DNA of 64,000 bases from Bacillota bacterium (GCA_009784375.1 WRBV01000001.1:177256-241255); one strand, 5' to 3'; shown: positions 10,534 to 60,171, numbered from the stretch's first letter. Notes: generated by a model from the letters alone, not told the origin. A program made the numbers and translations.

Positions 10534-10536
10534 AAT

Positions 10537-19521: not shown

Positions 19522-20193
19522 CTATCTCTCTTGGACACGATTCTGATGATTATCAAATGCAACAGCACGCGCGGCATGGGCATTGTCAGGTTGGACGTGT
19601 GCATTCATTCTATCGCTGCGTAACACACGCAAAGTCCTTGTGAAATCAGAATTTGCTAACTGTTCGCAAGTTTCGGGTGTTAAACAATCTCGGTCAAAGC
19701 AATCTTGGTTAACTTGTGTTAAAAGTGCGGATTGATTTCTTTCGACCCTACGTCGTTCTGCTCGGTTTCCCGACAAAGGAACTCTTGCAAGATTTGGGGC
19801 TGTTCCCAATTCTTGTGAAAGACTTTCCAATGCAAGTACACTCGCCATATGAGCGCGACTGTTTCGGTGATTTACCACGGCACTATGTGCACCTGATTGT
19901 GCATCACGCACACGGTTTTCTTGTAACAATTCGAATACTCGGTTGAATTCACCAAGTACCTGTTCGACATGTTCTTCACCAACTTGTTCTACAAGTGCCG
20001 CACGTGCCGTTTCCGCATGGCGTAGGTTTTGTTGGTGTGGCGTTTCGGCATTTAAGCCGATAAAAGCTAGCGCACCTATTAATAGTGGTAATATAACATG
20101 CCCACGTCCTACCACATTCCAAGGGTCTGGAACATGCCACATGCTCCTTTGTTCTTCTTCGACTTGTTCGTCGTTTTGATTATTTTGATTCAT
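19522..20193 (-). CDS. Hypothetical single-TM protein (no lysines) downstream of a putative attenuator
   Basis: AAGGAG RBS; TM segment VILPLLIGALAFIGL. Confidence 0.65.
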   Translation of the reverse strand: MNQNNQNDEQVEEEQRSMWHVPDPWNVVGRGHVILPLLIGALAFIGLNAETPHQQNLRHAETARAALVEQVGEEHVEQVLGEFNRVFELLQENRVRDAQSGAHSAVVNHRNSRAHMASVLALESLSQELGTAPNLARVPLSGNRAERRRVERNQSALLTQVNQDCFDRDCLTPETCEQLANSDFTRTLRVLRSDRMNAHVQPDNAHAARAVAFDNHQNRVQER

Positions 20194-20252
20194 TTTATGA
20201 ATTCTCCTTTTTAATTTTATATAGACATAAATAATTCCAAGTTTATGGACTG

Positions 20253-20457
20253 CAAAGAAAAACTCCGCGGGACCTTTGTTTAAATGCTTAAGGTCGCGGA
20301 GTTTTATATATTTTGGTTTTATGATTTATTTGCTATAAGAAATCTGACATCCAAAAATACACTCGGCGACCGATGTGTACTTTTTAATAATTACTAGTCC
20401 ATTTCTTAAATTATCCATGTCTAGCAATATTATATGAAGTAAAATTGAATTTGTCAA
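20253..20457 (-). promoter_or_regulatory. Promoter, leader peptide (20326-20418) and antiterminator/terminator
   Basis: TTGACA-17-TATAAT. 30-aa uORF. GGTCGC.GAGT is complementary to terminator arm ACTC.GCGACC. Hairpin with a U-tract. Confidence 0.6.
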
Positions 20458-20514
20458 CAATAAATTAAAATAAAGAATTGACTAATTGATTTGAGTTGGG
20501 GTATAATGAAAGAT

Positions 20515-22089
20515 ATGTCACGCAAGATTATAACAATAATAGCAATCGTGGTAATTGTATTCGGAGGAGGGCTTGCAGCCATCCTTATTAATAATGCTGC
20601 ACGTGCTTTTACACCTGTTGCACACTCAATTACTTCCGAGCAACGTTTTTCGGTTACTGGTAATGGTGGTAATGCGGTTTCAATAGGAAACTATCTTTTC
20701 TTTATCGGAAATTATGTTCCATCACACACAATAAGATACCGCCAAAACGAACACAATAATGTTTCATACGGTGCAATTTATCGTGTGACTCTTGGTCCCG
20801 ATGGTTTCCCAACATATGACAACACTTGGCTTACAAATGAAACAGACTTGGGAAGTCCCGAACTCAATGCCGAATACCACGAAGGTAGATGGAATACCCG
20901 TGTTGCTAACAAACGCCTTATCGTTCCAAAGATTGCTGGACACGAGCGTAGTGCCATGTGGATTTTCGGAAACCATATCATTTACACAAGTCCACACAAC
21001 CGAATGAACAGACAAGGCAACATGCAAACAGACAGACTTGACTTTTTCCGTGTGAACCTTAATGGAAGTGATCACAGACTTCTTTACACAAGTTCAAGTA
21101 CCACTCTTACGCGTGATGACTCAACTGTTGCATGGGTAAATGGTCGCAGTTATCTGCTTGTCAATGATAACAACAGACTTGTTCGTGTCAATGTATCAAA
21201 TAGTCCTGGTGACACAACAACAATTGCCCGTGATGTTACAAGCTTTGCGTTTCCAACGGTAACAAATTACTTTCAAACCAATCCAGATAATCCACAACTT
21301 AAGGGTTTTGGCGGGGCAATGAATTTTGTCTATTGGACAGAAAACAGAACAGCAAATGATAACCGCGTTACACGTGGAAATATAATGAGAAGGTTTGATA
21401 TCTCGAATGGTACAAGAACCACAATCGGTGAAGATGTCGGAGTCAATTACCGAGTAGTATCAATAAGTGGCGGAAACTTTATCTTTACAAGACAAGATTT
21501 AGACCTTGATCCTAACCCATCTTTATTTATCGCTGACCGTGTATTTACTGCGGGCGAGCATATAAGTTTTCTTGCAACTGATTTACTTCAATCAAGTGAA
21601 GTTGTGTTTGCCTCAACAGAAACAAGTGGTGCATTATTCCGATTTATAACATTATATAACGGAGGAATTCACCTTTACACACGTCCAAATGCATATTCAC
21701 AATTTACTGTACGCAACACACCGCTTGTTGAAAATAATGTAGAAGAAATCTTGCTTGTAACCGCGAACAACATATATTATCGCAGAGGTTCTGAAGTTCG
21801 CGTAATTGACTTTCATGGGAATGTTGCCGACGAAGACAGAAGTTTTGGTACGGCATCTGAACGTATTGACGAAATCAACATTTCATTTTTCCAATCGCGT
21901 CCATATCGTGGAAGTAACGATTTCCAAGCTCGTGAATTCTTCTTCTTTATGACAACGCTGACTGAAAACTTTGATGACGACGCAGGTGAAGATGAAACAA
22001 GAACACGTGAAACAATATCTGTCCCAGCAATAGTCGACAGAAGCGGTAATACATGGATTCTTGCTGTAATTGATGAAAGATTTCTTTAA
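20515..22089 (+). CDS. Membrane-anchored surface protein (beta-propeller-like)
   Basis: N-terminal TM; repeats of the IYRVTL/FFRVNLNGSD type. ATG 20515 lies 7 nt after TATAAT. Confidence 0.7.
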   Translation: MSRKIITIIAIVVIVFGGGLAAILINNAARAFTPVAHSITSEQRFSVTGNGGNAVSIGNYLFFIGNYVPSHTIRYRQNEHNNVSYGAIYRVTLGPDGFPTYDNTWLTNETDLGSPELNAEYHEGRWNTRVANKRLIVPKIAGHERSAMWIFGNHIIYTSPHNRMNRQGNMQTDRLDFFRVNLNGSDHRLLYTSSSTTLTRDDSTVAWVNGRSYLLVNDNNRLVRVNVSNSPGDTTTIARDVTSFAFPTVTNYFQTNPDNPQLKGFGGAMNFVYWTENRTANDNRVTRGNIMRRFDISNGTRTTIGEDVGVNYRVVSISGGNFIFTRQDLDLDPNPSLFIADRVFTAGEHISFLATDLLQSSEVVFASTETSGALFRFITLYNGGIHLYTRPNAYSQFTVRNTPLVENNVEEILLVTANNIYYRRGSEVRVIDFHGNVADEDRSFGTASERIDEINISFFQSRPYRGSNDFQAREFFFFMTTLTENFDDDAGEDETRTRETISVPAIVDRSGNTWILAVIDERFL

Positions 22090-22682: not shown

Positions 22683-22730
22683 TTCCAAGTATTGACAGTA
22701 ATATATTTATACAATATAATAGAAACATAA

Positions 22731-22892: not shown

Positions 22893-24053
22893 ATGAGAAA
22901 AATGGAAGGAATCGAATGTTTGCGTCGCAAACAGGTCATTACCAGCGAATCGGTCAATATAGGTCATCCAGACAAAACCTGTGATGTAATAGCAGACAGC
23001 TTTTTGGACGAGGCACTTCGTCAAGACCCGAATGCCCAAATGGCTGTTGAATGTGCTATCAAGGATGATTTACTTATGATATATGGCGAGGCAACGACCA
23101 CAGCCAAAATTGATTATCAAAAAATCGCACGCGGTGTTTTAAAAGATATCGGATATACAAATGAATTCCAAGTTGTCGAAAAAATATCTAAACAAAGTCC
23201 CGAGATTAATAAAGCGGTTGTCAAGAAGGACGAGTTAACTGCTAATGATCAAGGAATTGTATATGGTTATGCAACGAATGAAACGCCTGAATATATGCCA
23301 CTTCCTATTATTATGGCACACAAATTGATGAAGAGATACGAAGAGTTTAGACATGGACACATTGGTTCTAATGAAAGCCTGATACCGGGTCCAGCGTCAC
23401 GCTGGTTTTACGCCGATGCAAAGAGTCAGGTCTCTATAGAATACGATGGAAATAACCCGATTGCTGTTCACACAATTTTGGTTTCTGTGTCACATTCGCC
23501 ATCAATTTCATGTTCTTCTATATATAACCTTGTCCAGAAGAATGTTGTTGACACAGTACTTCCAGAATATCCACAACTTGATACCAAGAATACAAAAATT
23601 ATAATCAACCCAAGCGGTGCATTTACAATATGGGGCAGCTTTAGCGATAGTGGATGTGTAGGAAGAAAAATAGTGGTAGACACATATGGCGGAGTAGGAA
23701 GAGTAGGAGGTGGATGTTTTTCATCCAAAAATGCAACAAAGGTTGACCGAAGTGGGGCGTACTATGCACGCTATGTTGCAAAGAACATCGTCGCGAACAA
23801 AATGGCAGACAAATGCGAAGTAAGTGTAAGTTATGCAATAGGTCTGTCCGACCCATTAAAATTAAATATCGAAACTTTTGGCACACACAAGGTCCCAGCC
23901 GAGAAAATTTATCAATATGTTGAACAAAACTTTGATTTCTCGCCATCTAATATAATACGTGAACTTGATTTGTTGAAACCTATATATAAACAAACTGCAT
24001 GTTTTGGGCATTTTGGAAGGGAAGGATTTCCGTGGGAGTTTATAAAAAAGTAA
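22893..24053 (+). CDS. metK: S-adenosylmethionine synthetase
   Basis: TSESVNIGHPDK, DQGIVYGYA, GRKIVVDTYGG, KVDRSGAY and FGHFGR. Confidence 0.97.
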   Translation: MRKMEGIECLRRKQVITSESVNIGHPDKTCDVIADSFLDEALRQDPNAQMAVECAIKDDLLMIYGEATTTAKIDYQKIARGVLKDIGYTNEFQVVEKISKQSPEINKAVVKKDELTANDQGIVYGYATNETPEYMPLPIIMAHKLMKRYEEFRHGHIGSNESLIPGPASRWFYADAKSQVSIEYDGNNPIAVHTILVSVSHSPSISCSSIYNLVQKNVVDTVLPEYPQLDTKNTKIIINPSGAFTIWGSFSDSGCVGRKIVVDTYGGVGRVGGGCFSSKNATKVDRSGAYYARYVAKNIVANKMADKCEVSVSYAIGLSDPLKLNIETFGTHKVPAEKIYQYVEQNFDFSPSNIIRELDLLKPIYKQTACFGHFGREGFPWEFIKK

Positions 24054-24131: not shown

Positions 24132-26126
24132 ATGATTTCAATGAGTACTATAAAAGAAAAATGGCCAACGTTTGTGTTTATTGGTGTTGGTGCCATGGTC
24201 ATGCTTGTTCTTATTGTTCTTATGGGTGTAAATGCTTTTGAGGGCAATCCGTTGCTTAGTCTTGATGGAATGGGCAGCCAATATTTTTGGGTGCTTATTT
24301 TAATTGCACCGCTTGGTGCCGTTGCTTTACTTGTTACTGGTTTCTTCTTTGCCGATGAAAAGAGTAAGACCGTTGAACAATTTTATTCCAACCGTTGGAT
24401 GACCAAGATGGAATTAAACAAGAAGCACATATATACCTTGCTGACAAATCTAAAGAACGTAAAAAAAACAGGTGCGCTTGTAAGGTTCGAGGCACAAGGT
24501 CGTGATGTTCATATCAACATGGTTGAAAAGGATTACCATACAATTGTTTTGGGGACAACAGGATCGGGTAAAACGCAAGGATATGTATTGCCATATGTAT
24601 ATACACTTGGTCACAGCGGTGAAAAACCAAACATGGTTATAACCGACCCAAAGGGTGAAATTTATGCCCAGATGGCAGAAACATTGCGAAGAAATGGATA
24701 TGATGTCCAAGTCTTTAATCTAAGCGAACCAACCAAATCAAGTCGTTGGAATCCATTCGAGCGAGCATGGGATTTATTCACACGTGCGCATCATCTTGAC
24801 CGCGAATTAAAAAAACATTCGGGAGTTGACCCAAAGAATCTTAACCTGAGAATTATTGCAAGCACGTATCCAAATGAATGGTTTGAATTTAACGGAGTAG
24901 CATTTCCATCATTTGAAATGGCGGATATGGAAAGAAAAACATTAAAGCAAAGATTATTGTCCGAAGCCGAGGCTGATATCAAGGACATCTGTGCGGTTAT
25001 ATGTCCAATTGAAAACGAGCGTGATCCATCATGGGAGCAAGGTGCGCGTGACATGATCCAGGGTACTGCACTTGCGATGTTGGAGGACAGTTTACGTCCA
25101 GAGCTTGGGATGACTCGTGAAAAATTCAATTTCTATAACGTGTTCAAAATTCTTACATTGCGCGATTCGGACCCTAACAATTCATTTGGAACAATTCGTA
25201 ATTATTTCGAAGGGCGTTCAAGGTTATCTCCTGCGGCTATGCTTGCACAGACCGTTGTTGCTAACTCGGAAAATACAATGCGAAACTTCTTTGGTGTGGT
25301 TACAAATAAACTTTCTATGTTTGCCGACAAGGGAATATGTTACATTACAAGCGGCACCGAGATTTCATTTAATAACTTCATCGAACGTCCTACTGCATTT
25401 TTCCTTGTTATTCCTGACCAAATTAAAATTCGTCACCCGCTTGCTATATTGTGTGTGTCACAACTTTATAAAACACTTGTTGACCTTGCAAATAATCTTG
25501 GTGGTTCGTTAAAGTGGCCAACATACTTTATTCTTGATGAATTTGGTAACATGCCAAAGCTGAATGACTTTGAAACAATAGTTACTGTTGCTCGTTCGCG
25601 TAAAGTCTTCCTTACACTTGTTCTGCAGGATTATAAACAACTTGAATCGGTCTATGGACAAGAAAAAGCGGTTACAATCCGAAATAACTGTAACACCCAA
25701 ATTTTCATCGGTGTTAACGATATGGATACCCGAAAAATGTTTAGTGATCTTATGGGTGAAATGACTGTCGAAGCCAAGAGTACAGGTGTTTCAAAAACAA
25801 CGGGTAAAGCATCCGAAAATGATAAAGATGGTGGTTCAAAGTCTACAAACTATAACACCGTTTCTCGTCCGCTTCTTCCGCCTAACGAACTTCTTGATTT
25901 AAAGCCTGGTCAAATTTACGTTTACTGTTTTGGATATAACCCATTAAAAAGTAACGTCACAATGTTCTATCAATGCGTAAAGAATGGACTTGTACGATTG
26001 TACCCAGCACCAGACGAATGGCAAGCATCAAAATATTTCGACGAGGAAGCTGTATTCTATGACATCCGCCGTCGTAATGATATCGTACTAAAGGGTGCGC
26101 GTAAGAACGATGTATTCGATTGGTAA
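24132..26126 (+). CDS. VirD4/TraG-like type IV coupling ATPase (orphan)
   Basis: Two N-terminal TMs, GTTGSGKT, TDPKGE, WNPF, ILDEFGN, ARSR and LQDYKQL. Confidence 0.9.
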   Translation: MISMSTIKEKWPTFVFIGVGAMVMLVLIVLMGVNAFEGNPLLSLDGMGSQYFWVLILIAPLGAVALLVTGFFFADEKSKTVEQFYSNRWMTKMELNKKHIYTLLTNLKNVKKTGALVRFEAQGRDVHINMVEKDYHTIVLGTTGSGKTQGYVLPYVYTLGHSGEKPNMVITDPKGEIYAQMAETLRRNGYDVQVFNLSEPTKSSRWNPFERAWDLFTRAHHLDRELKKHSGVDPKNLNLRIIASTYPNEWFEFNGVAFPSFEMADMERKTLKQRLLSEAEADIKDICAVICPIENERDPSWEQGARDMIQGTALAMLEDSLRPELGMTREKFNFYNVFKILTLRDSDPNNSFGTIRNYFEGRSRLSPAAMLAQTVVANSENTMRNFFGVVTNKLSMFADKGICYITSGTEISFNNFIERPTAFFLVIPDQIKIRHPLAILCVSQLYKTLVDLANNLGGSLKWPTYFILDEFGNMPKLNDFETIVTVARSRKVFLTLVLQDYKQLESVYGQEKAVTIRNNCNTQIFIGVNDMDTRKMFSDLMGEMTVEAKSTGVSKTTGKASENDKDGGSKSTNYNTVSRPLLPPNELLDLKPGQIYVYCFGYNPLKSNVTMFYQCVKNGLVRLYPAPDEWQASKYFDEEAVFYDIRRRNDIVLKGARKNDVFDW

Positions 26127-26200
26127 CTTGCCCGGCAAGTTAAACGTAAAAGAGGGTTGCCACCCTCTTTTAGAACTCCCAATCAATTTTACTTATAAAT

Positions 26201-26468: not shown

Positions 26469-26612
26469 GGTTTTAACTTACTTTGAAATAATAAAGAAGG
26501 TTTGAAAATTTTTTGTAACACTTTTTGGTTTAAAAAGTGTTGGAAAATAAATCATTCGGATATATAATTAATCCATAATAGTACAAACTAACGTTGGGGG
26601 AAAAGTGTACAG

Positions 26613-29600
26613 ATGAGGAAAATTGCAATTGGTTTGTTTGCAATGGCGTTCGTTGTATCCGCTCTTTTCCTTGTGCCTATGCACACATCTGGCATAGTTA
26701 ACGCAGTTTATCGCGACACACCTTATCATTTTATTCCGCCGAATTCTGATCCATCGGGTACGGCTGGTCGTCGTGTATTCGGTGAAAACGGTGGAGAACC
26801 CCAGGCTTTTGTTTTGCAATCAAGATTTTTCGATGGTAACGATGATATTACGGGTGATACCGATGTTGTTCCGTTGCGTTCAATTTTTTCGGATGCCGAT
26901 ATGCAAAGAATTCAATATAGTGAAAATAATCTTCCGACCAATCGTGACATAATAAACACTCAAGATTTTGGAATGGTCATGCTTGATATGGATAACCCGA
27001 CTGCAACAGACAATTTTGTTGTATTGGAACTTTTAAATCTTAATGCTCTCAGCCTTGATATAAATGAAACTTGGTTCGATTTTCGTCCAGCAGACGGTGC
27101 AAGGGTTACCCGTAATGCAACAACACGCGAAAATCCAGCCGACCTAAGTACATACCATTTCATGGACAACAGCACCAATACTAACGCGACCAATGATTAT
27201 ATCCGTGATCTTGCAAGACAAAATCCAGGCAGACTTGTCCATAACAACAGATTCTCGATTGTTGGAATGTTCCAAGAAGAAGGTTATTACAGATTCCGTT
27301 TCCGTGTAACAAGCTTCAATTTCCCAGTATCACGAAGTCTTGTATTTGAATTTGCATTCTATATTGTACATTCAACCAACTATGAGGATTTTCCACATAT
27401 TCGTGGAGATGCGGTGACAAGACGTGGTGACAGTAACGTTTATTATTTTAACTTTATGGGTGAAAATCCATACCTTCTATATAATCCAGAACGTTTTACA
27501 ACAACTGTGCGTGCAACTAATTTCGCAGGACTTGATATTGGCGAAATAGAAAACAGGACATATGTCCCACTTAATCAACCGAATTTTGATGACATTGCAC
27601 AACTTGTGGATGATAATGGATATTGGTACGTCCATATGAATGGTAATAATTATCCAATAAACATAGATGACACAGTCCAAGAGCACGAGATTAAAGTCGA
27701 GATAATTCACGGTGCAGATGATTATTGGTGGATTTACGTAAATGGGGAATACATTGCAACAGGGATAGAAGTTGTTATCGGAAGGCATATGGAGTTCTAT
27801 ATGATAGGAAGCTATCGTGTGAACAGTTATATGGTCTTTTCATTCAATGGTGTAAGAATTCCTGTGTTGAATTTTACCGATTATAATTACATATTACATA
27901 TATTTGGTTTCCAAGCACATTACGAGGCATACGACGAAGTAACAGACACATTTACCACAAGTTGGTTTGGTTGTAATGAACGTGGTCTCAATGCAGATAT
28001 ATCTATGCGAGATGATTTGCCATCAGGTGCATTTGCAAATGACCAAGCGGGCGCCGATGCATTCAGAATCTCGATGGAGAATTGGGTAGATAATCAGAGA
28101 AGCGCATTGGGCGGGCATCGGGCGGTTGCAACCAACTCTGGACCTGTGCGACTTTTTGGAAATGCAACACTTGAACAGAACCAAGGTTTCCTTACTACAG
28201 TATCATTTAATAACGGTACTGAATGGAGAGAGTTGCCATTTACTCCTAACCGTCCATTTGAAACGGCGGGTGAGTACATTATAACAATGTATTACGTGTT
28301 CCCAGCAGCAACAAATAACATAAGAACAGTACTTCGTCAAGTTTTCCATTTTCGAATTATTAATACAATGGATATACGTGTCGCGCATTATCTTGACGGG
28401 ATACCAGGTGGAAATCTTCACGATGTTTATCATATAAATGACTTTGTTGGACAACGAATTCCAATATCTGGTTCATTCTTTGTATTTATGGATGGGATGG
28501 AATATTACCACGAAAGCGAACTGTCACCATTCATCATCAGACCTCGTGTTCAATTAACTGTGACCGATTTTGATGGAAATAACGCACGAACTATTCCAAA
28601 CTTTGAATTACATGATCTTCTTGCTCAATTTGAATTGCAAGAACGCCACGAAGAAGGTATATACACATTTAGTGTCTTTTTCGGTCGCAGAGGTGTGGCA
28701 GTAACACACTTTACAATAGTAGTAGATAACAGCCCAATTCATGATTTCCGAATTGTTAACCACGGTGGGACGGAATTAATACCGACAAATGCACCAGATA
28801 ATTTTGCAATATGGGGTTCGGGAACTGATGAGGATTTCTTTGTTGAATTGCATTGGGGTATTAAACCAAGTGGAATAGGATTTACAACAGCCGAAGTCCA
28901 AGTATATACATTTGACAGAGACGAGAATTTTTCACAATCAGATAACTTTAACAATGCCAATATGTTGTCGCCATTTGTAATGAATACAACACCATCGATT
29001 TTAAATTTCAGAGTATTAGAGGTGCGTAATCCACAAGGCATACTAACAGGTTTCCGAATTGCTGAACGTTTTACGGGTTCGGGTATTTATATCTTTCGTG
29101 TGACTGATGCCGCTATGAATGTAAGTACCTTTGTTCTTGTAATAGATAATACACAGTCCGCATTTGCACAAGACCCACTTGTTGACGAGGAACACATAAT
29201 CAACATGGTAACAGACAGGAATGGAGCAAATGTTGGTTTTGGTCTTAACAAGATAATCGAGGCTGACCTTGGAACCATTATCTTGGAAGAGGGCGAAAAT
29301 GGCGCAAGTGATATAACATTATTAAACAAGTTAACAGGCACAAATTTGATTAATTCAGATGGACTTGTAATTCCTATCCAAAAGATTGAAATGGCGACCG
29401 ATATGGGTAACGGAAGATTTAACAGGATTTTCGAAAGATTACCAAACAACACAATATATGGAAGCAATACGATACATCTTGTCGATGAAAATTTTTACAC
29501 ATTCAGAATCCATGACCATTTTGGTAATGTTACAGAATACTATGTGTTTTTAAACTTTGACCGAAGTCGTGGTGCAATCTTAGAGGACTCGGTTGCAAAT

Positions 29601-39039: not shown

Positions 39040-40659
39040 ATGAGCAGAGCGGCGAGGACGGTCTCGGCATATGTGGCGGGTGCGATACTCGGCATTTTCC
39101 TTGTTGTGTTTGGGATATTTGCGCTTATATTTTGGTTTCCACGTGACCTTACATTCCTTGGGATGGGTAACGTTAATCAAAGAGAAAGTTTTACGCGATA
39201 TGGTTGTGCTGATGTTCGAGAAGTCTTGGACAGCAGGAATATAATAGTCAACTCGTCACGTACCGATATAATGATCAGAGCAACTAACCCAGGTCAAGCA
39301 GACGAAGGTACAATAGTTATATACGAAGATGCAAGGGGAATCACCTTTAACGGTAACCACAGAACTCATATTTCTTGGACGCAAACACTTACGCCCGAGA
39401 GAGAAGTGTTTTATCAAATAAACGTACATGAACCATCAGGTATGGTACAAAGGCGTGCACTTGTAACGATTAACATCATAAGTGATGGTTCGGCACCGTT
39501 GCCTTTTAATTTTATATTTAACACAGGCACGGCTAATGTAACGTTTGCGGGTGATTCGCCTGCCGACTTTTTACTTGTCGAAAGTGTAGTAATTAATCCA
39601 GGCTCGGTTGGAATATTCACTTTCCCACAGCCTGCGAACCCTTCAATTGGAAGAAACTTCGAGATGGAATTACAAAACCTTGTTGTTCATGCATCTCCCG
39701 CGACTGTACGTGCACCAGACGGAGTTACCCAGAGCGTTATAATACATGGAAACCATGGGAACTATACATTTGGTGAAGTGGGAACACTTTATGTGCCAAA
39801 CAGCACAAGTGTAAATATAACAACAAGAGAAATCCACGGCAGCGTACATATCAATTCACGTGGTGGGACTATGAATTTGGGTATCGTGAACAGTAGCGTG
39901 ACAATGACCGCCACAACAGGTCGGTTAAACGCATCCCGAATATCTGGTAATGTGGACTTTACAACAACTTCGACAGGTAGTGTAAACGTTACAGAGATAA
40001 TAGGAACCTTGGACGTAGAAACAAATGCAGGAAGCGTAAATGTAAGGTCTGTTCACGGAAATGTGAATATCAACAGCAGGCGTGCGCCAATTCATCTTGG
40101 TACTGGAACAGGTTCAAGCCCAGTCCCAGGAATGCGAGGCAATGTGACTATTAATAACACATATGGTGTGACAAACGTTTATTTTATGAACGGTATCATA
40201 GGGGCCCCAAGTCTTGATTTTGTTGGTTTTGATGGAAATATCAACGCAAGGAATATCGTTGGACGAACTAACATTCTTATCGAAAGTGGCGGTCGTGCCC
40301 AAGTATCGGCAGGCTTCAGGCGAGTCCAAGGAAATCAAAATGAGATTAGATATATAGGAAGTACAGACCCACGCTCGAACTTTGGTAATGTCCGAGTAAT
40401 ATTGCAAGGTCCTCTTAACGCAAACCCAGCATTTAACGCATTTAATTTTAATGTTTCTGATTCGCGAAGTGCGCGTGACTTTACTGGATGGTTTGTGCCA
40501 GGAAGACCAAACCCTCCATCTAATGCAACACAACATGGTGTAGAAATTCCTAATATAAATGCTCCTGGCGGTGCGCCTTGGCCTGTTATGGGCGGTTCGG
40601 GTGCAAATGTATTAAATGTATTTACGACTAACGTTGTTCGTTTGGAATGGGGACGATAA
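39040..40659 (+). CDS. Membrane-anchored surface protein with a DUF4097-like beta-solenoid
   Basis: N-terminal TM; repeats GSVHINSRGG / GNVDFTTTSTGSV / GTLDVETNAGSV. No lysine seen. Confidence 0.75.
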   Translation: MSRAARTVSAYVAGAILGIFLVVFGIFALIFWFPRDLTFLGMGNVNQRESFTRYGCADVREVLDSRNIIVNSSRTDIMIRATNPGQADEGTIVIYEDARGITFNGNHRTHISWTQTLTPEREVFYQINVHEPSGMVQRRALVTINIISDGSAPLPFNFIFNTGTANVTFAGDSPADFLLVESVVINPGSVGIFTFPQPANPSIGRNFEMELQNLVVHASPATVRAPDGVTQSVIIHGNHGNYTFGEVGTLYVPNSTSVNITTREIHGSVHINSRGGTMNLGIVNSSVTMTATTGRLNASRISGNVDFTTTSTGSVNVTEIIGTLDVETNAGSVNVRSVHGNVNINSRRAPIHLGTGTGSSPVPGMRGNVTINNTYGVTNVYFMNGIIGAPSLDFVGFDGNINARNIVGRTNILIESGGRAQVSAGFRRVQGNQNEIRYIGSTDPRSNFGNVRVILQGPLNANPAFNAFNFNVSDSRSARDFTGWFVPGRPNPPSNATQHGVEIPNINAPGGAPWPVMGGSGANVLNVFTTNVVRLEWGR

Positions 40660-49700: not shown

Positions 49701-51882
49701 TCTTGGAGGAAGCCAGGAAAGGATAGGTTTCGTACGTCATAACTCGACATTGACTGGTGTTACAGGTACAGGTACGATTATTAATTCATTTGTTCATAAT
49801 GCACCAAGGGTAGGGGCAGAGGCTGGATTCTTTCCATTCGCACTTAACTATACCGAAGGGAACATGTACAACAATAAATTTATACGTCACGAGAGTTTCA
49901 CCGCGTCAATACCTGCTGCTGACCTTAACTTGCCACAAGATCGAATTGCTCACATAAATATTACAAACATAGACCAAACAAGTGAATTCCTTGGTTTCAG
50001 TATAAGCGAGATTATTGAGCTCGACACACCGAACATGTGGCAAATGACAGTAGTCGGTCCAAGGTTGGTAAGTGCGAACCACATTGCGATTTCTATCCGT
50101 CGTGTAAGTGCATACACTTGGCCAGACGGGGAACAAAGAATTGAATTTGTGCCAGGATTCGAATACGGCACAAGCAGATACAACCCAATCATCATTACAA
50201 ATGGTGACCAATTCAACAGATACATGTTTGAAGACAGCGAGGCACAATATCAACATGATAGATATCTCGAGTCTAATGGTGAAATACCAATTGATTGGTC
50301 AAGAAACGTATACCAAGGTTATTTGCGTCTTGTTAACAATATTTCTCTGCGAACTGCCACAGCAACTGGGATAACTTCCCATGGTGGATTATTGCGAACG
50401 CAAGGAATAATTTTCCGTGGACACTTTGATGGGAATGGATTAGAAATAAACGACATTTCCATGAACGCGGCACCAGACGTCGAACGTGGGCTTCAAAGTG
50501 TTGGATTATTCTCGAAAGTCGAACATGCTACAATTAAAAACATTAACCTTAACTTTATAAAGCATCCTGTTGCTGGTATAGATTACTCTATTGCTGCAAT
50601 TGATGCGGAATATGTTGGCGGTCTTGCTGGGATTGCGATTAACTCTAATCTTGTTGATATAAACCTTGGAATACAAACAACAGGAAACACAGACAATCAA
50701 CTAACAATAATTGGTGGTGCAAACGTAATCGGTGGTCTTGTTGGTGTTGCTGTAATGTTCAACCATGATGCAAGTGACAACAACACATTCAAAATCGAAA
50801 ACATTGCGTCTAATGTTCGTGTTTCGTCATTAAGCAATTCTCTTAACTCGCGCGATCTTGGATTGAATTATGACCAACTTGGTATTGCGGGTGGAATTAT
50901 GGGTGTGATAACACATGATGTTCGTGAATTTGTACGTGGAGACCGAACTAATAACGAAGAGATGTTTATGCGTGACATATTCAACTATGATCGAGAAAAT
51001 TCAAGAGACTTCCGAGTATTATCAAGAGACCAAGTCCGACCATTAGGAACAGAAGTAAACCCACACATTGCGGTACGTAACATCCGAAACTTTAACGAGC
51101 GTGCAATCGCGGTAACTGGAGAAATTGCTGGTGGATTGGTTGGTATCATAGGAAGTGAAATCAACACAACAAGGCTAAGCTATGAATTTGATGGTGCAAA
51201 TAACATAGCAGACAACTTTATCCGCGGTGCATTCTATGTGGGTGGATTGGTTGGTATGAACTTTGGAACAATTGATATTGCGACGTTTGATATTCCAACA
51301 TTCAATGTACAATCGATATTTTCGGCTGGATTCATATTTAATGTGGATACAAGCTATACAACAATTCGACACGGCATGACGGTTGGTGGTATTGCTGGAT
51401 TCAATGCTGGAACGATTTCACATGCTACAAATAATACGAACATGGCAACTAATAGTACGGGAACACACGAAGTTGATTGGCGTCAAGTAATGACGGTTGG
51501 TGGTATAGTTGGTGAAAATGTTGGTGGAACAATTGAACATGGTCGAGTATATCAATCACTAGCAAGTGGATTTGTTCTTGGCGGTATTGCGGGTATAAGT
51601 CGTGGCGGGACTATCGAAAATAACTTTGTACATGCAAACGCAAGGGTTGTTGTAGGTCCACCAACCCCACATCCAAATTTAAACTTTACGATTAATACTG
51701 GATTGGCGGGTTCTACACACCAGATTCACGAATCATTCCAAAATCAAGCAAGCTTCGGGACAAATGAATTACGTGATTTGTCAAATAATATTATTAATCC
51801 AAACCGAAATCTTCGTCGTGAATATACTGGCACCCACATCGGTGTGCGTACAGGTAGTGTAAGTGAAGCTAATAATAATTAA
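40756..51882 (+). CDS. Giant surface protein (3708 aa) with GLUG-like beta-helical blocks and Ig-like modules
   Basis: N-terminal TM anchor; several blocks of VGGIVGRN/AGGLVGFN repeats preceded by NPYQIWT / FDGNG-type motifs. Confidence 0.85.
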   Translation: MGDKRNLSKRNKIILGAMVGLVLIGVLAIILSTTGGGNAAQMRISANTTNVNITMQMSVQNNQIVPPAIAQRFQDVIVTVSRAPSEIGSGVHAYSLDQNVATAWVEARSGDRNWVRIVGQGAGQTRIRVMSHGGQRTMYINVRVDVPAQDFVVRDPRFGVIHNQIAPNSIEFVESDFNFFATTNHNFDVATSINTIDFSFAPGTETHGTRIDGNRFIVYPGSTIGVVQVRATLRRNTAITRDFPVHIFPSTSFGDLGLRDMTGSQISNSGLVIAPLVLNNTLAAPNFIDYDLTIANIPISNTRNIAYGNLTYRYQLINHNENITYVLEETPDQFRVMGKTPGHTYVDVMVFPVLQVGANTIFFNRTQDSHLQRTRRIRVEVRNTFRDDQLRFTEDNDINNEFDDIYAFFAIGRNDRFNFNVTMTDDVMVNNTPSHPLNNRVTFDIINSPIPVPSTQIGTFFNITYSPTAAREPNATTTMISPHFTNGVPYNSYFSISFVSNPGFAGGDPSIISQFMAASSDLIPEQDRLMLEVRSIAMRADGETPLASKRIPLRVIRSVTEMHAENSAGDIITTLFPVRNGVSNPFDFYVATDLGDDAVANRFSWTLSQNARTPYGELFNITREPATVGGRLGFSIAVNPTIADDVRIGVEYYIDIRYISGYTIRLPILVQERLESYTYDVIGLSGNAQIFEPRNTTRLSGGVNLFLRIDGTYSLNINAMPTHASVFASMIPSSTSIIVCNTTFTFRPTEEGQFTINVSLGSVNPDVLIGIDRDFVINITVINPIMRADFSHNWERIYSVNTLSHFASPLVEGSFLDFTLDFEFAGGGNTSSTINITTSYTSPNIRLEQLGWNSFRVHGLWDTGEDIFDTISFEIEQTFHGYTRSFTFGSPRVFHLNVREVEMIQSIHLRNVGETLNMTLNAQGTQSMTVLTTPYPIEGVHNLDIGFAFLVGGTIFNPNGTLIQNIPGIVSVNNAGQITAIHSNVGVHQHDVRLVVFAFDSIRRDGGGNLVFNPIELVHVPVNVYIFNPHDGDGQFLIETREQFLTHFGFVAATGVPNSIRGRIQTIGVQNFLYYERAQRNQAADIVTGYFRLAADIDFSGILLEPISHFNGTLTGVRTAEIRGGAEEQESKWQLQNMSFRTRTGVNAWTQWSTAVGAGGTENVGLFGTIGTNGLVQGISFTNAHLHVNFNRMSLPATFHNRNINVGMLAGINNGIVSDISVHFENANYIATGFERLNIGAVVGLNNNIIREENRMRTTGLIRVGFAPNDQHFAVNRRVTNINAGGVAGRNSLNGTISGRNAGGILQDNIEVVSQVTLLIVDQENVVTDEMDKNVGGIVGRNDGIVREISAEAVIFSAARGNAGGLVGFNTGLLENSYTTSAIYARGALGGIAGRNTGIIQNTYFDMYINTTIGRNIQPLLRTHVPAAIREQNPGWDQFYAGLIVGRDANTTVVEANPTIVGGVVGRNSGNVFNSFASSIFTRDTTHVFTQHPTIHALEYRGDIYIHGAQNVIVGGVIGRQEGGNGHNQVEGVYSNLLINYNSSGVRGAPIIGGVIGEIRHDANATIIAAYSYNQYRINAHAQEFTGLANTQLAIAGVVGRNNNLLNVNDVQFILTYAVLETSQVEWIGLPTGAARIFPITGINLGSVLNVGTVLTGASTMRNINLATWTDSGHAAVDYFINFSNADIYDLTGLTSLEFESRVGFGFPMVRMSFEPTDYQFELPLFIATPTAIVLQLHSQAALSARFGAQLNNRGEFNYVVIADNNPVTGTQSAALFYSSGGTRSGPVDVANRYFLDDLFTQRVSPSIASRRMEITITDENVAWLGRDTSTGEPRFFIQLTGVLGSFEIHATSTRHEEGLAIVGKVRFDVVPAIATQTLTRDAISTLARQSLLTNDRNNFNHGLSVQRGTTISLRGAILPNPNGWEIISHKTYAFDGVFIMNYSNGAPILMNRVEEDGFNFHFIPRMQVGDMVYLLGSLEIVLNIDVYDGAIYLDFRQDQVTFDGSNAAIYSGVFITDITPTAFNVMNLTTLTEEQRIEIFTTLTRFNFFTEDNYHTLFTDGNITRIHITDQGRSFFLVFELFVEPVIALANGYFEYRFNINLSIEIDMRAYTDIPGGNLFETPGAMPIGLFGRIDVIEQNLDGRVRNLLRDSANVDIIPQVLETITIQHYTSTTRAGLPIYQMRVTDMENQNWNVFTDIDPVGSLLKVYAHPFFSNIESFSLESSRVEQVIGQRPTGQGNETEDIIREWEIQFTQMVFDPINEVFTNYGVVSGVSGGEIHQVSTYRVLADGTRVFTWDGVYYIQTRLVVIQDDYINDIPVTPLAPGEFFTISLNFESVNGAAINDSFRLGVVRRPGLMFTYDGQNTREAVQAIGTTHNLTATVVGDVEIGDITTTDIRQRWQDAISISANHPTASVDSNDISINVTSATATGAVISIEIGPTVPEGTNIMLEIIGILFEGGDRLQLPDPIFNLTAVLFRVLDFRVDGVMGNTIRLRNNNQQQMHLRAVVDRYTGPTLELQQRIDTAITALENQINTTELVTWTGWNNNRGWILNRSEWNQETEFYYSEVGPGGEDRNELNFFLGRGATSNIKFISASTPSARTTSLEVRMYYEIVGGRYSVRSGGTFNPISTTFSIVSIRQSPEDNPYQIWTESDLIAALEDSDSANGHFILMADITLGSTGVGWLPRPINFNLDGNNKRLTLSRIAQQTDAATVNIGLFTTIAQNQVIKNLNIVPGTLGARDHSILTVNLGEHRNNIIANIGVLAGINNGIVTNVAILPAAQFYNNDGTPHLRHGHQVASFGTTQNPHSTFDIDNDRARARLHIITNRTESHLRVGGLVGQNSSNGVISNSRVLVDIEATLPQLEHDLPGNFAARTAYIAGFVGENSGYIVSSFYRDGNVNNRIRPNQGGGAGIDRFSRTAGFVGLNRGIVRGNYVQGATNTIDQADGGVRRGAILSNYNVTGFVYVNIGTIQDAFVNITLGGSQERIGFVRHNSTLTGVTGTGTIINSFVHNAPRVGAEAGFFPFALNYTEGNMYNNKFIRHESFTASIPAADLNLPQDRIAHINITNIDQTSEFLGFSISEIIELDTPNMWQMTVVGPRLVSANHIAISIRRVSAYTWPDGEQRIEFVPGFEYGTSRYNPIIITNGDQFNRYMFEDSEAQYQHDRYLESNGEIPIDWSRNVYQGYLRLVNNISLRTATATGITSHGGLLRTQGIIFRGHFDGNGLEINDISMNAAPDVERGLQSVGLFSKVEHATIKNINLNFIKHPVAGIDYSIAAIDAEYVGGLAGIAINSNLVDINLGIQTTGNTDNQLTIIGGANVIGGLVGVAVMFNHDASDNNTFKIENIASNVRVSSLSNSLNSRDLGLNYDQLGIAGGIMGVITHDVREFVRGDRTNNEEMFMRDIFNYDRENSRDFRVLSRDQVRPLGTEVNPHIAVRNIRNFNERAIAVTGEIAGGLVGIIGSEINTTRLSYEFDGANNIADNFIRGAFYVGGLVGMNFGTIDIATFDIPTFNVQSIFSAGFIFNVDTSYTTIRHGMTVGGIAGFNAGTISHATNNTNMATNSTGTHEVDWRQVMTVGGIVGENVGGTIEHGRVYQSLASGFVLGGIAGISRGGTIENNFVHANARVVVGPPTPHPNLNFTINTGLAGSTHQIHESFQNQASFGTNELRDLSNNIINPNRNLRREYTGTHIGVRTGSVSEANNN

Positions 51883-56595: not shown

Positions 56596-57165
56596 ATGAA
56601 AATAATATGTGAGTTATCTGTGCGCCATGCTCATCTTGCACAAGAGCATGTGGATATTTTATTCAGCAAAGGACATAAATTAACACCAGTAAAGGACTTG
56701 TCTCAACCAGGACAATATTTGTGTGCCGAGCGTGTTGAAATTGTGACACCAAAAATGACAATGAAAAATGTTGGTATTATCGGACCCGTACGTGCAAAGA
56801 GCCAGGTTGAAATTTCAAGAACAGATACCTTTGCACTTGGATTAAAAGGCGTTCCAGTTCGTCAGAGTGGTGAGCTGGATGGTAGTGTTGGTGTTATTCT
56901 GAGAACCGATCTTGGCGAGGTTGCTCTTAATGAAGGTGTGATTGTTGCACAACGTCATATTCACATGGATCCAAAATCGGCATCAGAATTTGGGTTAGCC
57001 GATAATCAAATGGTGTCTGTGAAGTTTTTGGGTGATCGTGGTGGAGTTTTATATAATACAGTAGTAAGGGTAAGTGAAAGCTTTGCTCCCGCGGTACATA
57101 TAGATTCGGACGAGGCAAATGCGCTTGGTCATATATGCGGTCATGATGTGGAGATAATCAAATGA
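56596..57165 (+). CDS. pduL: PduL-type phosphotransacylase
   Basis: SVRHAHL, LSQPGQY, QVEISRTD, AQRHIHM and HIDSDEANA. Confidence 0.92.
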   Translation: MKIICELSVRHAHLAQEHVDILFSKGHKLTPVKDLSQPGQYLCAERVEIVTPKMTMKNVGIIGPVRAKSQVEISRTDTFALGLKGVPVRQSGELDGSVGVILRTDLGEVALNEGVIVAQRHIHMDPKSASEFGLADNQMVSVKFLGDRGGVLYNTVVRVSESFAPAVHIDSDEANALGHICGHDVEIIK

Positions 57166-58049
57166 GTAAAAAGCTTATCGGTGAAGTAACAAGCGTTGCA
57201 AAGACGGGATATTTTGTAAACATAGATATTAACAGTCAATCGTTATTCTGTATTATAAATAACTCTTATGTGGAAGACAATCCACCTGTTGTTGGCGACT
57301 TTGTTGTATTAGAACAAAAGGATGACCAGTATCTTGTTAAGTCAGTAGAGCCAAGGAAAAATTACATAGCACGTTACGATTTTCACAAAAACCGATCACA
57401 AGGATTTGCCGCCAACCTTGGAACAATTCTTATTGTAACAAGTGCAAACAAAGAATTTTCAACCAATCGTATAAGACGGTTTTTGGCACTCAGCGGTGAT
57501 CAACCAGTCCGACATGTAATAGTACTAACCAAAATTGACCTTGCCACCAATCTTGATTTTTATAAAAATATTATTAAAAAAGAATTTCCTGGCGTAGAGT
57601 TTGTTGCACTTAATTCACTTAAAAAAACAGATGTTGCGAAATTATTTAAATACGTTGCCGAGGGTGAATCGGTAATGTTGTTGGGTTCAAGTGGGGTGGG
57701 TAAGACCACTATTATTAATACATTACTTAATATGAATCTTCGCACAAATGAAACAAAGGGTGTACGTCACAAAGATTCTGGTCGACACACTACAAGTTCG
57801 CGTAACATGTATTATACGGCATGTGGGCGAAAAGTTATTGATGTGCCTGGAATTAAAATTGTTGGTGTTGAAAAAGAAGACATAGAGAACAGCCCAATTT
57901 TCCAAAAAATAGTTAGCATGGCACGAACATGTAAATACACAAACTGTAAACACATAACCGAGGATAAATGTGCAATCAAAGCGGCGATTGAATCAGGCGA
58001 GTTGGAAGATTGGGAATTGGAAGGATATAGACAAATGTTGAGTGAGTAA
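57162..58049 (+). CDS. rsgA: Ribosome small subunit-dependent GTPase A
   Basis: TKID, GSSGVGKT, GRHTT, DVPG and the CKYTNCKHITEDKC zinc finger. Confidence 0.92.
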   Translation: MSKKLIGEVTSVAKTGYFVNIDINSQSLFCIINNSYVEDNPPVVGDFVVLEQKDDQYLVKSVEPRKNYIARYDFHKNRSQGFAANLGTILIVTSANKEFSTNRIRRFLALSGDQPVRHVIVLTKIDLATNLDFYKNIIKKEFPGVEFVALNSLKKTDVAKLFKYVAEGESVMLLGSSGVGKTTIINTLLNMNLRTNETKGVRHKDSGRHTTSSRNMYYTACGRKVIDVPGIKIVGVEKEDIENSPIFQKIVSMARTCKYTNCKHITEDKCAIKAAIESGELEDWELEGYRQMLSE

Positions 58050-58269
58050 GGTATATATCGAAAAGTAAAGTCATAAAGAACTTGCCGATAGAATGTATGA
58101 AAAATCTAGAAGTACTCTAGGTTTATCCTTCCTCGCAATGACGGGGTGGACTGGGTACAGTTCGCAATGACGATAACAAGGGGAGTTTCGTGCTTCTTTC
58201 TTAATCGGCTTTACAAAACAGAAATAGTTTGACAAAAAGATGCAAATACTTTATTGTAGGATTAAGCAA

Positions 58270-60171
58270 ATGAAACACTTGGGGGTAATAGTTGTTTTTG
58301 TGTTAGTGGCGATGGCTTTTGTATTGCCAGCTTTTTCAAGCCCGTATAATCCAACAACAATTTCCGCAAGCGAACAAGATATAACGAATGAGAATGTGGT
58401 ATCTAGCCGATTTGAACCATCTAGTCTTGGTGGGATTGAAACCACGGTAATGTTTACTGGAATCCATAATTATTTTAGAAGACATGGGCAATTTGCTGGA
58501 ATATATATTCACAGACCTGCACAAATATTTAACTCGGAAGACGTTTTTATTGGTCATATAAACATAGACAGAAATGACATGAATTTCCATCATTTTGAAT
58601 ATTCTACTTTGCGTTTTGTAAATGGAGATTGGGTTCCAACAAACTGGTTTTCTTATAATAGGCATGGTGATGGTGTAGAATTTTTATTCAGGAAAAATTT
58701 ACCGGCTGGAAGATATGCAATTCGTGCTTATGCATATGAAAGATATACCAATGACTATGGACAACAAGCATACAGACAAGCAATGGATATAGATGATCCA
58801 GTAGGTGATGGTTATTTTATAGAGCAACCAATTACCGCATTGTATGAAATATTATTTGCCGAAGACTTGCACTATATAATAGGAAGAGACAGCTCGGGAA
58901 ATAATATCTATAATGCAAGACAAAATGGTCTTAATAGAACAATTCATGTAGATGTTGCGGCAAATCAAGGGGCTATGAATAAACATCTTGCACCATCTAG
59001 AATTGTTGATGGTTTTTCAATGGGTAATATTTATCGAAATGCTGTTGTTACTCCAAATAATATGGAGGTTGTGGTTAGACGGGGCGGAGTTTCAACCGAT
59101 TTAATTACTGTTACAAGATCACAAAATGGATTTAATATACACTTGCCGTCATCACTTCCGACTGGACATTTTGTTGTTGAATTTTCGCATGAAGCAAGTG
59201 AACATGTTTTTGGAACTTTTGTGATTGATAATTCAGTTGTCTTTTCGGCGGGCTCGGATTTGTCTGGTGCTGCTACTGCTATGTTTGTGATTGGAACCAT
59301 TTTGGCGGTGTTGGCAATTGCATTGTTTGTTACTCCGAAGTTAATGATTGCAGCACAAGACAGAAAATACGCTGCACTTCAAAACCAAAGATATATGACC
59401 GAAGGTGATGGTGCGGTTGACGACCAAGCATACAAGGCTCAGACTGCAAACGATTCGTTAAAACGTTCACGAGAACGTGCTGGTGCTGGCGCATCGAAAT
59501 CGAAATCTTTCCTCGAGACTATGAAAGAAAACCGTGCCAAGCGTGAGATTGCACGAGAACATGGTTTAACTATGGAAGAATTCCGTGACATTGAAAAAGC
59601 ACAAAAGAAAAATGAAGAAGCAAAGGTCACAGGTCTTCAAGGTTTCCGTCAAGCAATGGAAGAACATACAGGAAGACCAGTTGTAATAGAAGAGGACAAG
59701 CCAAAAGGAACGCTTGTGCAAGATACAAGTGAAGTTGAACTTCTTGATTCTATTGCACACAAATCTATGATTACCGACGAGAATCTTTCACAAAATGCGG
59801 TTCAACCAAATATAGCAGCACAGGGCAGTATTCTTTCAAATATTCGAACAATGTCGGGTGATGCGCATTATACAAAGCGTGAAGAAATATCTACAAGTGT
59901 GCCAGAACAAAATCCAACAATTCAACCGTTGCAAGATACGCCTCTTCAACAGGCTGAATCAACAACGGTACAACAACCAAATATACAGAATGCACCAACA
60001 CAACAGACACCGATACAAGCACAACCAAACCAAAATGAACAAGTGCAACAGGTTTCAAATCCACAGCCTGTGCAAAATATCGAGCCACCAAAACCAACCG
60101 AAGACGATAAACCAACACCACCAGCTGGAGGTGGGGGCATTTTATCAAGGCTTGGTAAACTTGGGGAATAG
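58270..60171 (+). CDS. Single-pass membrane protein: exported N-domain, cytoplasmic coiled coil and Q/P-rich tail
   Basis: Signal peptide, central TM MFVIGTILAVLAIALFV, low-complexity C-terminus. Confidence 0.75.
   Translation: MKHLGVIVVFVLVAMAFVLPAFSSPYNPTTISASEQDITNENVVSSRFEPSSLGGIETTVMFTGIHNYFRRHGQFAGIYIHRPAQIFNSEDVFIGHINIDRNDMNFHHFEYSTLRFVNGDWVPTNWFSYNRHGDGVEFLFRKNLPAGRYAIRAYAYERYTNDYGQQAYRQAMDIDDPVGDGYFIEQPITALYEILFAEDLHYIIGRDSSGNNIYNARQNGLNRTIHVDVAANQGAMNKHLAPSRIVDGFSMGNIYRNAVVTPNNMEVVVRRGGVSTDLITVTRSQNGFNIHLPSSLPTGHFVVEFSHEASEHVFGTFVIDNSVVFSAGSDLSGAATAMFVIGTILAVLAIALFVTPKLMIAAQDRKYAALQNQRYMTEGDGAVDDQAYKAQTANDSLKRSRERAGAGASKSKSFLETMKENRAKREIAREHGLTMEEFRDIEKAQKKNEEAKVTGLQGFRQAMEEHTGRPVVIEEDKPKGTLVQDTSEVELLDSIAHKSMITDENLSQNAVQPNIAAQGSILSNIRTMSGDAHYTKREEISTSVPEQNPTIQPLQDTPLQQAESTTVQQPNIQNAPTQQTPIQAQPNQNEQVQQVSNPQPVQNIEPPKPTEDDKPTPPAGGGGILSRLGKLGE

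Follow-up and report, generated by a model that had tools for sequence, protein, structure and literature searches.

Introduction

Lysine-to-arginine replacement is known from single enzymes of alkaliphiles. The alkaline-adapted M-protease of alkaliphilic Bacillus is poorer in Lys, Asp, and Glu and richer in Arg, His, and Gln, as recounted in a review (Horikoshi 2004, PMC8153356, on Shirai 1997), and a study of soda-lake glycoside hydrolases of Alkalitalea saponilacus gives 1.7-4.7% Lys for the mature secreted enzymes and calls this an "alkaline-typical feature" (PMC13591233, 2026). Lysine deserts are reported to prevent adventitious ubiquitylation in eukaryotic proteins (PMC10169902). Here we describe a 64,000-nucleotide stretch (the window) from Bacillota bacterium (GCA_009784375.1, WRBV01000001.1:177256-241255), in which exported proteins, most of them encoded between positions 19,522 and 60,171, are almost devoid of lysine. 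A preliminary description of this DNA had noted the pattern, and we confirm it as real, very strong, and genus-wide; it apparently concerns the whole extracytoplasmic proteome, with the cytoplasm as a control and Lys-rich outgroups. The explanation we favor, with a probability of roughly 0.6, is that all protein parts beyond the membrane have adapted to a termite-gut compartment of extreme alkalinity.

The genome holding the window (G000; the window is G000:C1:177256-241255) is an assembly of 1.08 Mb in 12 contigs, 85% complete, with a GC content of 0.38-0.40. Its genus is denoted g1 and its family f1 (Clostridia, ~1 Mb genomes). Since f1 genomes that are 90-100% complete span 0.8-1.3 Mb (against 1.4-3.2 Mb in the order's other families), the small size of G000 is real. 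The closest named relatives of its ribosomal protein L3, at no more than 66% identity, are uncultured Clostridia (Christensenellaceae/Catabacter metagenome-assembled genomes (MAGs), Ca. Gallimonas, Ca. Scatosoma, Ca. Coproplasma), with several records titled from chicken or ruminant guts, which suggests a Christensenellales-like order; GlmS and RecD-like protein queries against genome contigs retrieved distant relatives or none. G000 encodes penicillin-binding proteins (PBPs), signal peptidase, SpoIIR, and wall hydrolases and is therefore a walled spore-former.

A greedy longest-ORF caller yielded 1027 open reading frames (ORFs) of at least 70 amino acids (aa), covering 91% of the genome, and transmembrane (TM) segments and topology were taken from Kyte-Doolittle windows. 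Gene caller and classes are crude and untrained, and misclassified ORFs or topology are expected to blur an outside/inside contrast, not to generate one. The identical pipeline was run on 77-100 kb samples of relatives, except for G008 (58 kb with no exported ORFs) and G006 (14 kb with one). Lys and Arg counts are abbreviated below as, for example, K0/R23.

Exported Proteins of the Window

Exported domains in the window contain 0-0.6% Lys and 6-10% Arg; their cytoplasmic neighbors contain 6.5-12.8% Lys. The binomial chance of the observed Lys counts lies between 2e-7 and 1e-100 at the cytoplasmic Lys frequency of the genome and between 6e-5 and 2e-71 at the Lys frequency of exported proteins in sister genera. 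All manual counts in the preliminary description hold on recount.

Two giant surface proteins lack a Pfam family. The 3708-aa protein (40756..51882, + strand) has three Lys in the 12 residues before its TM segment and 15 Lys against 233 Arg in the ~3660 residues after it, distributed as K14/R207 in residues 32-3315 and K1/R26 in the final 374. The 2590-aa protein (26613..34385, +) begins with a signal/anchor (residues 4-22) and closes with a TM segment near its C terminus (2563-2581); its 2540 exported residues hold K15/R169, and its other three Lys are found before the first TM segment (one) and in the 9-aa C-terminal tail (two). Three N-terminally anchored proteins behave likewise. A 223-aa protein (19522..20193, -) is Lys-free (K0/R23), and a 532-aa exported protein (20491..22089, +) has two Lys before the TM segment and K3/R43 in the 501 residues after it, with 44 Arg overall; neither has a Pfam family. 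The third, a 539-aa exported protein (39040..40659, +), is also Lys-free (K0/R37); its likeness to DUF4097 beta-strand-repeat proteins appears solely in the ESM Atlas, a lead with no Pfam match. Further to the left, a 278-aa secreted protein (8039..8875, -) has three Lys in the n-region of its signal peptide and K4/R18 elsewhere, and a 151-aa collagen-repeat protein without a signal peptide (14751..15206, +; K0/R24) is probably a spore-surface fiber, a role assigned by inference.

Cytoplasmic controls are interspersed among these genes. The 643-aa bitopic protein at 58240..60171 (+) provides a control within one polypeptide: its outer part (residues 33-346, 314 aa) has K2/R20 and its cytoplasmic part (366-643, 278 aa) K19/R14. 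A VirD4/TraG-type coupling protein (24132..26126, +) has two N-terminal TM segments followed by a 592-aa domain with K42/R33, presumably cytoplasmic, as in this family generally. The 386-aa ORF at 22893..24053 (+), K31/R14, is presumed to encode MetK from its position behind a S-adenosylmethionine (SAM) riboswitch. Two more control ORFs lie at 51915-54146 (K54/R32) and 54750-56510 (-; K46/R22), the relatives of the latter looking like GlmS. These within-protein and cytoplasmic controls exclude mutational bias.

Contrast between Outside and Inside across the Genome

The preliminary description had proposed topology-specific selection, and the bias between outside and inside indeed persists genome-wide in K/(K+R), the Lys share of Lys plus Arg. 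Among 650 ORFs without a TM segment ("cytoplasmic"), the median is 0.64 and 19 fall below 0.3. The 104 ORFs with one N-terminal TM segment are bimodal, 50 of them below 0.3, as are 10 of the 12 ORFs with both N- and C-terminal anchors. Orientation accounts for the bimodality. When the 104 N-anchored ORFs were oriented by their K+R count over 15 residues on each side of the TM segment, a measure blind to the choice between Lys and Arg, the 56 predicted to face outward had a median of 0.13 (43/56 below 0.3), the 10 predicted to face inward a median of 0.62 (0/10 below 0.3), and the 38 of ambiguous orientation a median of 0.48.

The same contrast is seen within membrane proteins. With 112 multi-pass proteins arranged by the positive-inside rule, inner loops total K1731/R980 (0.64) and outer loops K374/R781 (0.32; Fisher p 8e-73). 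Lys is kept in the n-regions of signal peptides (K232/R145), and Lys and Arg together make up ~8.8% of residues after the first TM segment. Wall or surface proteins in which no signal was detected account for several of the 19 Lys-poor "cytoplasmic" ORFs; among them are an Amidase_3+PG_binding protein (K0/R34), a protein with three PG_binding_1 domains (K8/R51), an SH3_3 protein, and the collagen-repeat protein of the window (K0/R24). As signal-less wall and spore-surface proteins are Lys-poor too, it is exposure that counts and not the Sec or export route.

Distribution among Relatives

Lys depletion of exported proteins separates g1 from its relatives. The exported median K/(K+R) is 0.26, 0.20, and 0.18 in the g1 genomes G002, G003, and G004, respectively, with cytoplasmic values of 0.53-0.63. 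Genomes of six other f1 genera (G005, G007, G011, G014, G016, G017) have exported medians of 0.58-0.83 and cytoplasmic ones of 0.68-0.75. AT-rich members of other families (G020, G024) reach 0.74 and 0.81 (cytoplasmic 0.66-0.68), and GC-rich ones (G022, G027) 0.36 and 0.50 (cytoplasmic 0.50 and 0.28), the latter pair thus exhibiting little or no outside-specific Lys loss. Pooled multi-pass proteins of g1 (n = 138) have a K/(K+R) of 0.62 inside and 0.33 outside; for those of sister genera (n = 62) the values are 0.76 and 0.71, respectively.

All three housekeeping ectoprotein families tested (PBP, SpoIIR, and an LtaS-like protein) are Lys-poor in g1 only and Lys-rich elsewhere in the family and order. 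Among 28 PBP loci (a G010 fragment and a weak G029 match omitted), the ectodomain has K11-16/R39-48 in 5/5 g1 genomes and K25-55/R12-31 in 23/23 others; the PBP of the nearest sister genus (G006, 57% identity) has K38/R27. Of 26 SpoIIR loci examined (two without an ORF match; L346 left out), those of four g1 genomes have K1-3/R14-16 and 20 others K7-18/R3-10. For the LtaS-like ectodomain, counts are K7-12/R33-42 in four g1 proteins and K20-34/R5-22 in G006, G015, and G018. Only 10 exported orthologue pairs, too few and partly misoriented, could be drawn from the 100-kb samples, and their directions agree. The composition is thus not intrinsic to the protein families, a possibility that the preliminary description had left for comparison with orthologues. 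Because the three orthologue families agree, Lys depletion is a shared derived character of g1, and these sequences place its origin after the split from the genus of G006. It is also old, as judged by the divergence of g1 PBPs (66-71% identical to that of G000). The share of AGA/AGG among Arg codons is barely higher in exported than in cytoplasmic genes (0.36 vs 0.31), a weak footprint consistent with an old event and not evidence for one.

A wider comparison was made with the 150 nearest PBP cluster representatives from 1.84 billion proteins, whose median K/(K+R) is 0.59 and whose low values mostly go with GC-type amino acid usage. Measured against a fit of K/(K+R) to AT-type usage, the G000 PBP falls ~0.32 short, a residual computed by hand from the printed fit; the largest shortfall among the 150 is 0.28. 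Three representatives (P0004, P0024, and P0030; 36-44% identity) are Lys-poor relative to their AT-type usage and approach g1; they might be convergent lineages with a similar shift.

Surviving Lysines and Changes in Other Residues

In the PBP alignment, six positions carry Lys in 5/5 g1 sequences: positions 122, 298, 492, and 498 are Lys in 78-96% of the 23 other sequences, position 379 in 57%, and position 336, the exception, in 9%. We take positions 298 and 492 to belong to the SxxK and KTG motifs. PBP columns that are mostly Lys in the other sequences read Lys 40, Arg 35, and other 15 in g1. Signal peptidase has two Lys outside the membrane, one of them within a KRVI..PGD box, presumably the motif of the Ser-Lys dyad. 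As the retained Lys sit mainly at conserved or catalytic positions, Lys appears to be tolerated only where chemistry requires it.

The shift extends beyond Lys and Arg. Per-protein median percentages in exported domains of g1 (n = 142) and sister genera (n = 58) were compared, with nominal p values. Lys falls to 1.69 from 6.62 (p 3.5e-9), Tyr to 3.41 from 4.71 (p 2e-6), Cys to 0.38 from 0.92 (p 2.8e-6), and Ser to 6.20 from 7.16 (p 3.4e-4). Arg rises to 5.89 from 2.52 (p 6.9e-20), His 2.5-fold to 2.47 from 0.97 (p 2.0e-12), Trp to 1.18 from 0.45 (p 2.4e-8), Phe to 5.39 from 4.02 (p 9.1e-6), and Gln 1.26-fold to 3.51 from 2.79 (p 3.8e-5). Met is also higher, and Asp (5.30 vs 5.87) and Glu (5.71 vs 6.24) display a weak drop (p about 0.04). 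Cytoplasmic differences are far smaller (Lys 8.24 vs 10.0, Arg 4.81 vs 3.67, Tyr 3.21 vs 3.54), and the residue shifts replicate in G002-G004 alone.

Orthologous proteins agree. PBPs of g1 compare with the others as Tyr 22 vs 31, Phe 27 vs 19, Cys 3.4 vs 6.3, His 8.0 vs 4.4, and Asp+Glu 51 vs 67 (range 47-55 in g1 vs 60-107); LtaS-like proteins as Tyr 22-25 vs 36-44 and His 19-27 vs 8-13. SpoIIR moves in the same residue directions as the exported sets. The lost residues Lys, Tyr, and Cys titrate at about pH 8-10.5 and the gained ones keep their charge there.

An Alkaline Niche as the Proposed Cause

From a shift that is specific to topology, genus, and residue, together with a termite-gut label, we infer that pH was the selective agent and that g1 resides in an alkaline compartment. 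Under this proposal, g1 would have recoded the extracytoplasmic parts of its proteins so as to remove side chains that change protonation at about pH 8-11. Above pH ~10.5, Lys is uncharged, at the cost of salt bridges and solubility, and acts as a strong nucleophile; Tyr acquires a charge and Arg remains protonated. Outside the membrane, Lys gives way mainly to Arg, Tyr declines as Phe, His, and Trp increase, and Cys is lost, with Lys persisting only where chemistry needs it, as in the catalytic Lys of PBPs and signal peptidase. A pH-buffered cytoplasm could retain the Lys-rich composition usual for an AT-rich genome. The likely setting would be the strongly alkaline anterior hindgut of termites.

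An extremely alkaline habitat such as an insect gut compartment had been suggested at the outset. The insect gut fits: DNA of window positions 35000-44000 occurs in three public runs from two studies, all three labeled termite gut metagenome. Two of these runs possibly gave rise to the assembly, and the third contains one quarter of the sequence words. Extreme alkalinity is deduced from composition. The P1 hindgut of higher termites is described as sometimes highly alkaline and dominated by Firmicutes (PMC4660790; PMC7024585), and Defluviitaleaceae genomes are reported to have come mainly from P1, those of Ruminococcaceae from P3 (PMC7024585). Further sources report a pH above 12 in the anterior hindgut of soil feeders (PMC8784593) and abundant potassium ions accompanying anterior-hindgut alkalinity (PMC3900890).

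If Lys is treated as uncharged, exported proteins come to a net -4.8 charges per 100 residues in g1 and -9.6 in sister genera; exchanging Lys for Arg therefore preserves the balance of charge at high pH. An operon for a V-type ATPase lies at G000 C5:63908-67084 (L282), and its K subunit is closest to the Enterococcus hirae Na+-ATPase subunit NtpK (2bl2, E 2.5e-28). At the presumed Na+-site positions of 2bl2, the subunit retains the Glu and one Gln but has Ser in place of one Thr and Ala in place of one Gln, an incompletely conserved ion site. G002 has two copies of the K-subunit gene.

Several results weigh against alkaline adaptation as the cause. Cultured alkaliphiles depend on cation/proton antiporters, and PF03334 (MnhG), PF00361 (Proton_antipo_M), PF00999 (Na_H_Exchanger), PF03553 (NhaC-type), and PF06965 (NhaA) were not found in G000, G002, and G003 (85-91% complete), other antiporter families not having been searched; the same five families were not found in the Lys-rich sisters G006 and G011 either. 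The deamidation hotspot Asn-Gly is not avoided (observed/expected 1.03 vs 1.15, with overlapping confidence intervals), and Asn is not raised in g1 exported proteins (6.88 vs 7.45, p 0.16; 20.6 vs 34.9 in PBPs). Exported proteins of g1 are not more acidic than those of sister genera (median isoelectric point 6.08 vs 5.08), unlike the surfaces described as acidic in alkaliphilic Bacillus. SpoIIR is depleted despite acting in the space between forespore and mother cell. Three named alkaliphiles, of the genera Halalkalibacter, Alkalihalobacterium, and Natronincola, have a weak shift or none, and the effect size in g1 has no precedent. The pH of the niche is deduced from composition, and termite guts have neutral compartments also. 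Finally, the exported sets compared between g1 and sister genera are different proteins from related, nonindependent genomes, so that their p values overstate the evidence.

A stronger version of the proposal holds that g1 lives at a pH of at least 11 and represents the most extreme natural alkaline recoding yet, with Lys, Tyr, and Cys purged from all parts outside the membrane and an undescribed form of pH homeostasis needed. We advance it tentatively and would bet somewhat against it.

Alternative Explanations

Avoidance of amine-directed chemistry (quinones, aldehydes, glycation, CO2 carbamylation, lysinoalanine) in a lignin- and humus-rich gut fluid, rather than charge, is the alternative that fares best, although we regard it as unlikely. 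Replacement of Lys by Arg keeps the positive charge, the nucleophile Cys falls as well, and the habitat is a termite gut; soil-feeder food is stated to have nitrogenous soil compounds covalently bound to polyphenols (PMC8784593). The two explanations overlap because high pH raises the nucleophilicity of Lys, and the reactivity of deprotonated Lys is a probable cofactor of alkaline adaptation. Amine chemistry alone does not predict the loss of Tyr with gain of Phe. Moreover, His rises although Michael acceptors attack it too, Trp and Met increase despite being prone to oxidation, and Arg is the favored replacement although it is the main target of dicarbonyls such as methylglyoxal.

A second, improbable scenario is lysine economy, in which a Lys auxotroph on a nitrogen-poor diet strips Lys from proteins that cannot be recycled. 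The diaminopimelate decarboxylase families PF00278 and PF02784 were not found in G000, G002, G003, or G006, with DapA present, and g1 and its nearest sister genus (G006) may be lysine auxotrophs. G006 itself, however, is Lys-rich although LysA is apparently lacking there too, and cytoplasmic Lys in g1 stays at 8.2%. Since the nitrogen content of Arg is double that of Lys, the exchange is costly in nitrogen, and low-abundance housekeeping proteins and membrane loops are depleted as strongly as the giants. The Tyr, Cys, His, Phe, and Trp shifts are left unexplained.

Escape from a Lys-directed system, either a Lys-specific protease of host or microbes (an option already raised in the preliminary description, which has gained no support) or host ubiquitin ligases if the cells are intracellular, would yield a charge-keeping Lys-to-Arg swap, and Lys-poor stretches that avoid ubiquitylation are described for eukaryotes (PMC10169902). 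The PBPs, sporulation genes, and wall hydrolases are those expected of a free-living walled cell. Arg is enriched even though trypsin-like gut proteases cut after Arg as well. Tyr and Cys loss is not predicted, SpoIIR is depleted in the intermembrane space of the forespore, and no candidate protease was identified; we consider this scenario very improbable.

A compositional artifact (adhesin-family composition, mutational or GC bias, imported genes, or wrong ORFs) can practically be dismissed: giant repeat proteins without relatives for comparison do dominate the exported residues and g1 is slightly more GC-rich than sister genera (0.38-0.48 vs 0.30-0.37), but housekeeping orthologues are shifted, the two halves of one gene (58240) differ, cytoplasmic K/(K+R) in g1 stays at 0.53-0.63, and the G000 PBP lies ~0.32 below the AT-usage trend.

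OLE RNA and Other Features

A full-length OLE RNA lies at window positions 9953-10538 (-; 299 bits), with no obvious OapA-like gene beside it under translation table 11. The preliminary description had read this RNA as fitting an extremophile lifestyle, which is not supported. Outside g1, 14 of 26 relatives, some of them Lys-rich, yielded OLE, whereas none was found in the other four genomes of g1 (65-91% complete); it is therefore an inherited feature of the order and uninformative on the Lys trait.

The SAM riboswitch ahead of the presumed metK is at 22728-22820. The VirD4/TraG coupling protein stands directly upstream of the 2590-aa surface protein, and the region (24132-34385) may be a conjugative or type IV secretion-related island, the exported parts of which are Lys-poor like the rest of the genome. 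A run of four neighboring genes at 4449-7395 specifies Thr-rich proteins with little Lys or Arg and no clear signal peptides, including a DUF11-domain protein (4914-6383; K6/R7, Thr 14.7%) and a Cys-rich protein (6362-7048); the Thr-rich proteins may form a spore appendage or surface fiber. The left end (1034-3134) holds an ORF that, by its N-terminal motif, looks like a DNA cytosine methyltransferase, followed by an overlapping ORF.

Elsewhere in G000, six paralogues of 623-744 aa share a near-identical N-terminal anchor (C3:319, C2:5776, C2:205346, C4:19144, C4:95412, C6:57978). All have K2-5/R30-37, Listeria-Bacteroides repeats (Flg_new) were present in both of those scanned, and several contig ends fall in or near these genes. 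A 232-aa protein (C11:952-1650) has a His-rich start followed by two TM segments, and a 101-aa protein (C2:96218-96523) is rich in Cys, His, and Arg (K1/R22) and has no Pfam family; these two may be metal-binding or spore-coat proteins.

Comparison with Known Systems

The outside/inside contrast is a sequence-only indicator of a chemical niche and could help to assign termite-gut lineages to the alkaline compartment; if extreme alkalinity is indeed the cause, it would serve as a genome-only "pH meter" for uncultured microbes. The genus also supplies a natural set of thousands of tolerated Lys-to-Arg replacements with parallel Tyr, Phe, His, and Trp changes, which reveals irreplaceable Lys and can guide the design of proteins that withstand alkali. 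A further puzzle is what keeps the cytoplasm habitable in an organism whose ~1.1 Mb genome yielded none of the five antiporter families searched.

Named genomes for comparison were reached via a conserved 20-mer of the OLE gene in the window, and 68-80 kb with 3-10 exported proteins was sampled from each. Halalkalibacter wakoensis has exported/cytoplasmic K/(K+R) values of 0.40/0.58, outer/inner loop values of 0.44/0.62, and PBP Lys/Arg counts of 30/31; the corresponding figures for Alkalihalobacterium elongatum are 0.53/0.61, 0.34/0.70, and 42/29. Natronincola peptidivorans gives 0.77/0.70, 0.67/0.55 (four proteins), and 40/34, Lederbergia lenta 0.68/0.64, 0.52/0.60, and 50/24, and Guopingia tenuis (GC 0.52) 0.33/0.51, 0.41/0.46, and 38/19. 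The alkaliphilic Bacillaceae (H. wakoensis and A. elongatum) thus resemble g1 in having a lower K/(K+R) outside than inside, but the shift in g1 is far stronger, with 11-16 Lys in the PBP compared with 30-42 in the Bacillaceae (6-9 exported proteins sampled each). Such a gap would be expected if purging Lys pays only above its pKa.

No description of a proteome-wide, topology-resolved Lys depletion was found in the full-text literature searched, which is weak evidence given that most subscription journals lie outside its coverage; the word "lysine" is absent from the termite MAG paper (PMC7024585). Lysine deserts are like the g1 proteins in being long, evolutionarily retained Lys-free stretches (PMC10169902). 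They are, however, eukaryotic, cytosolic, and tied to ubiquitin, whereas those of g1 lie outside a bacterial membrane and go with Tyr and Cys shifts.

The nearest parallels are with alkaline-adapted enzymes. The work on A. saponilacus concerns three enzymes without a compensating rise in Arg (PMC13591233); in g1, Arg is doubled, the change is proteome-wide, and the cytoplasm provides a control. With the M-protease, g1 shares the pattern of Lys, Asp, and Glu down and Arg, His, and Gln up outside the cell. It differs in that Lys drops as low as 0-1%, Tyr and Cys are depleted too, and Asn shows no rise. The M-protease case also involves single enzymes and a moderate shift; that in g1 spans the whole extracytoplasmic proteome, including membrane loops, PBPs, signal peptidase, sporulation proteins, and presumed spore-surface proteins.

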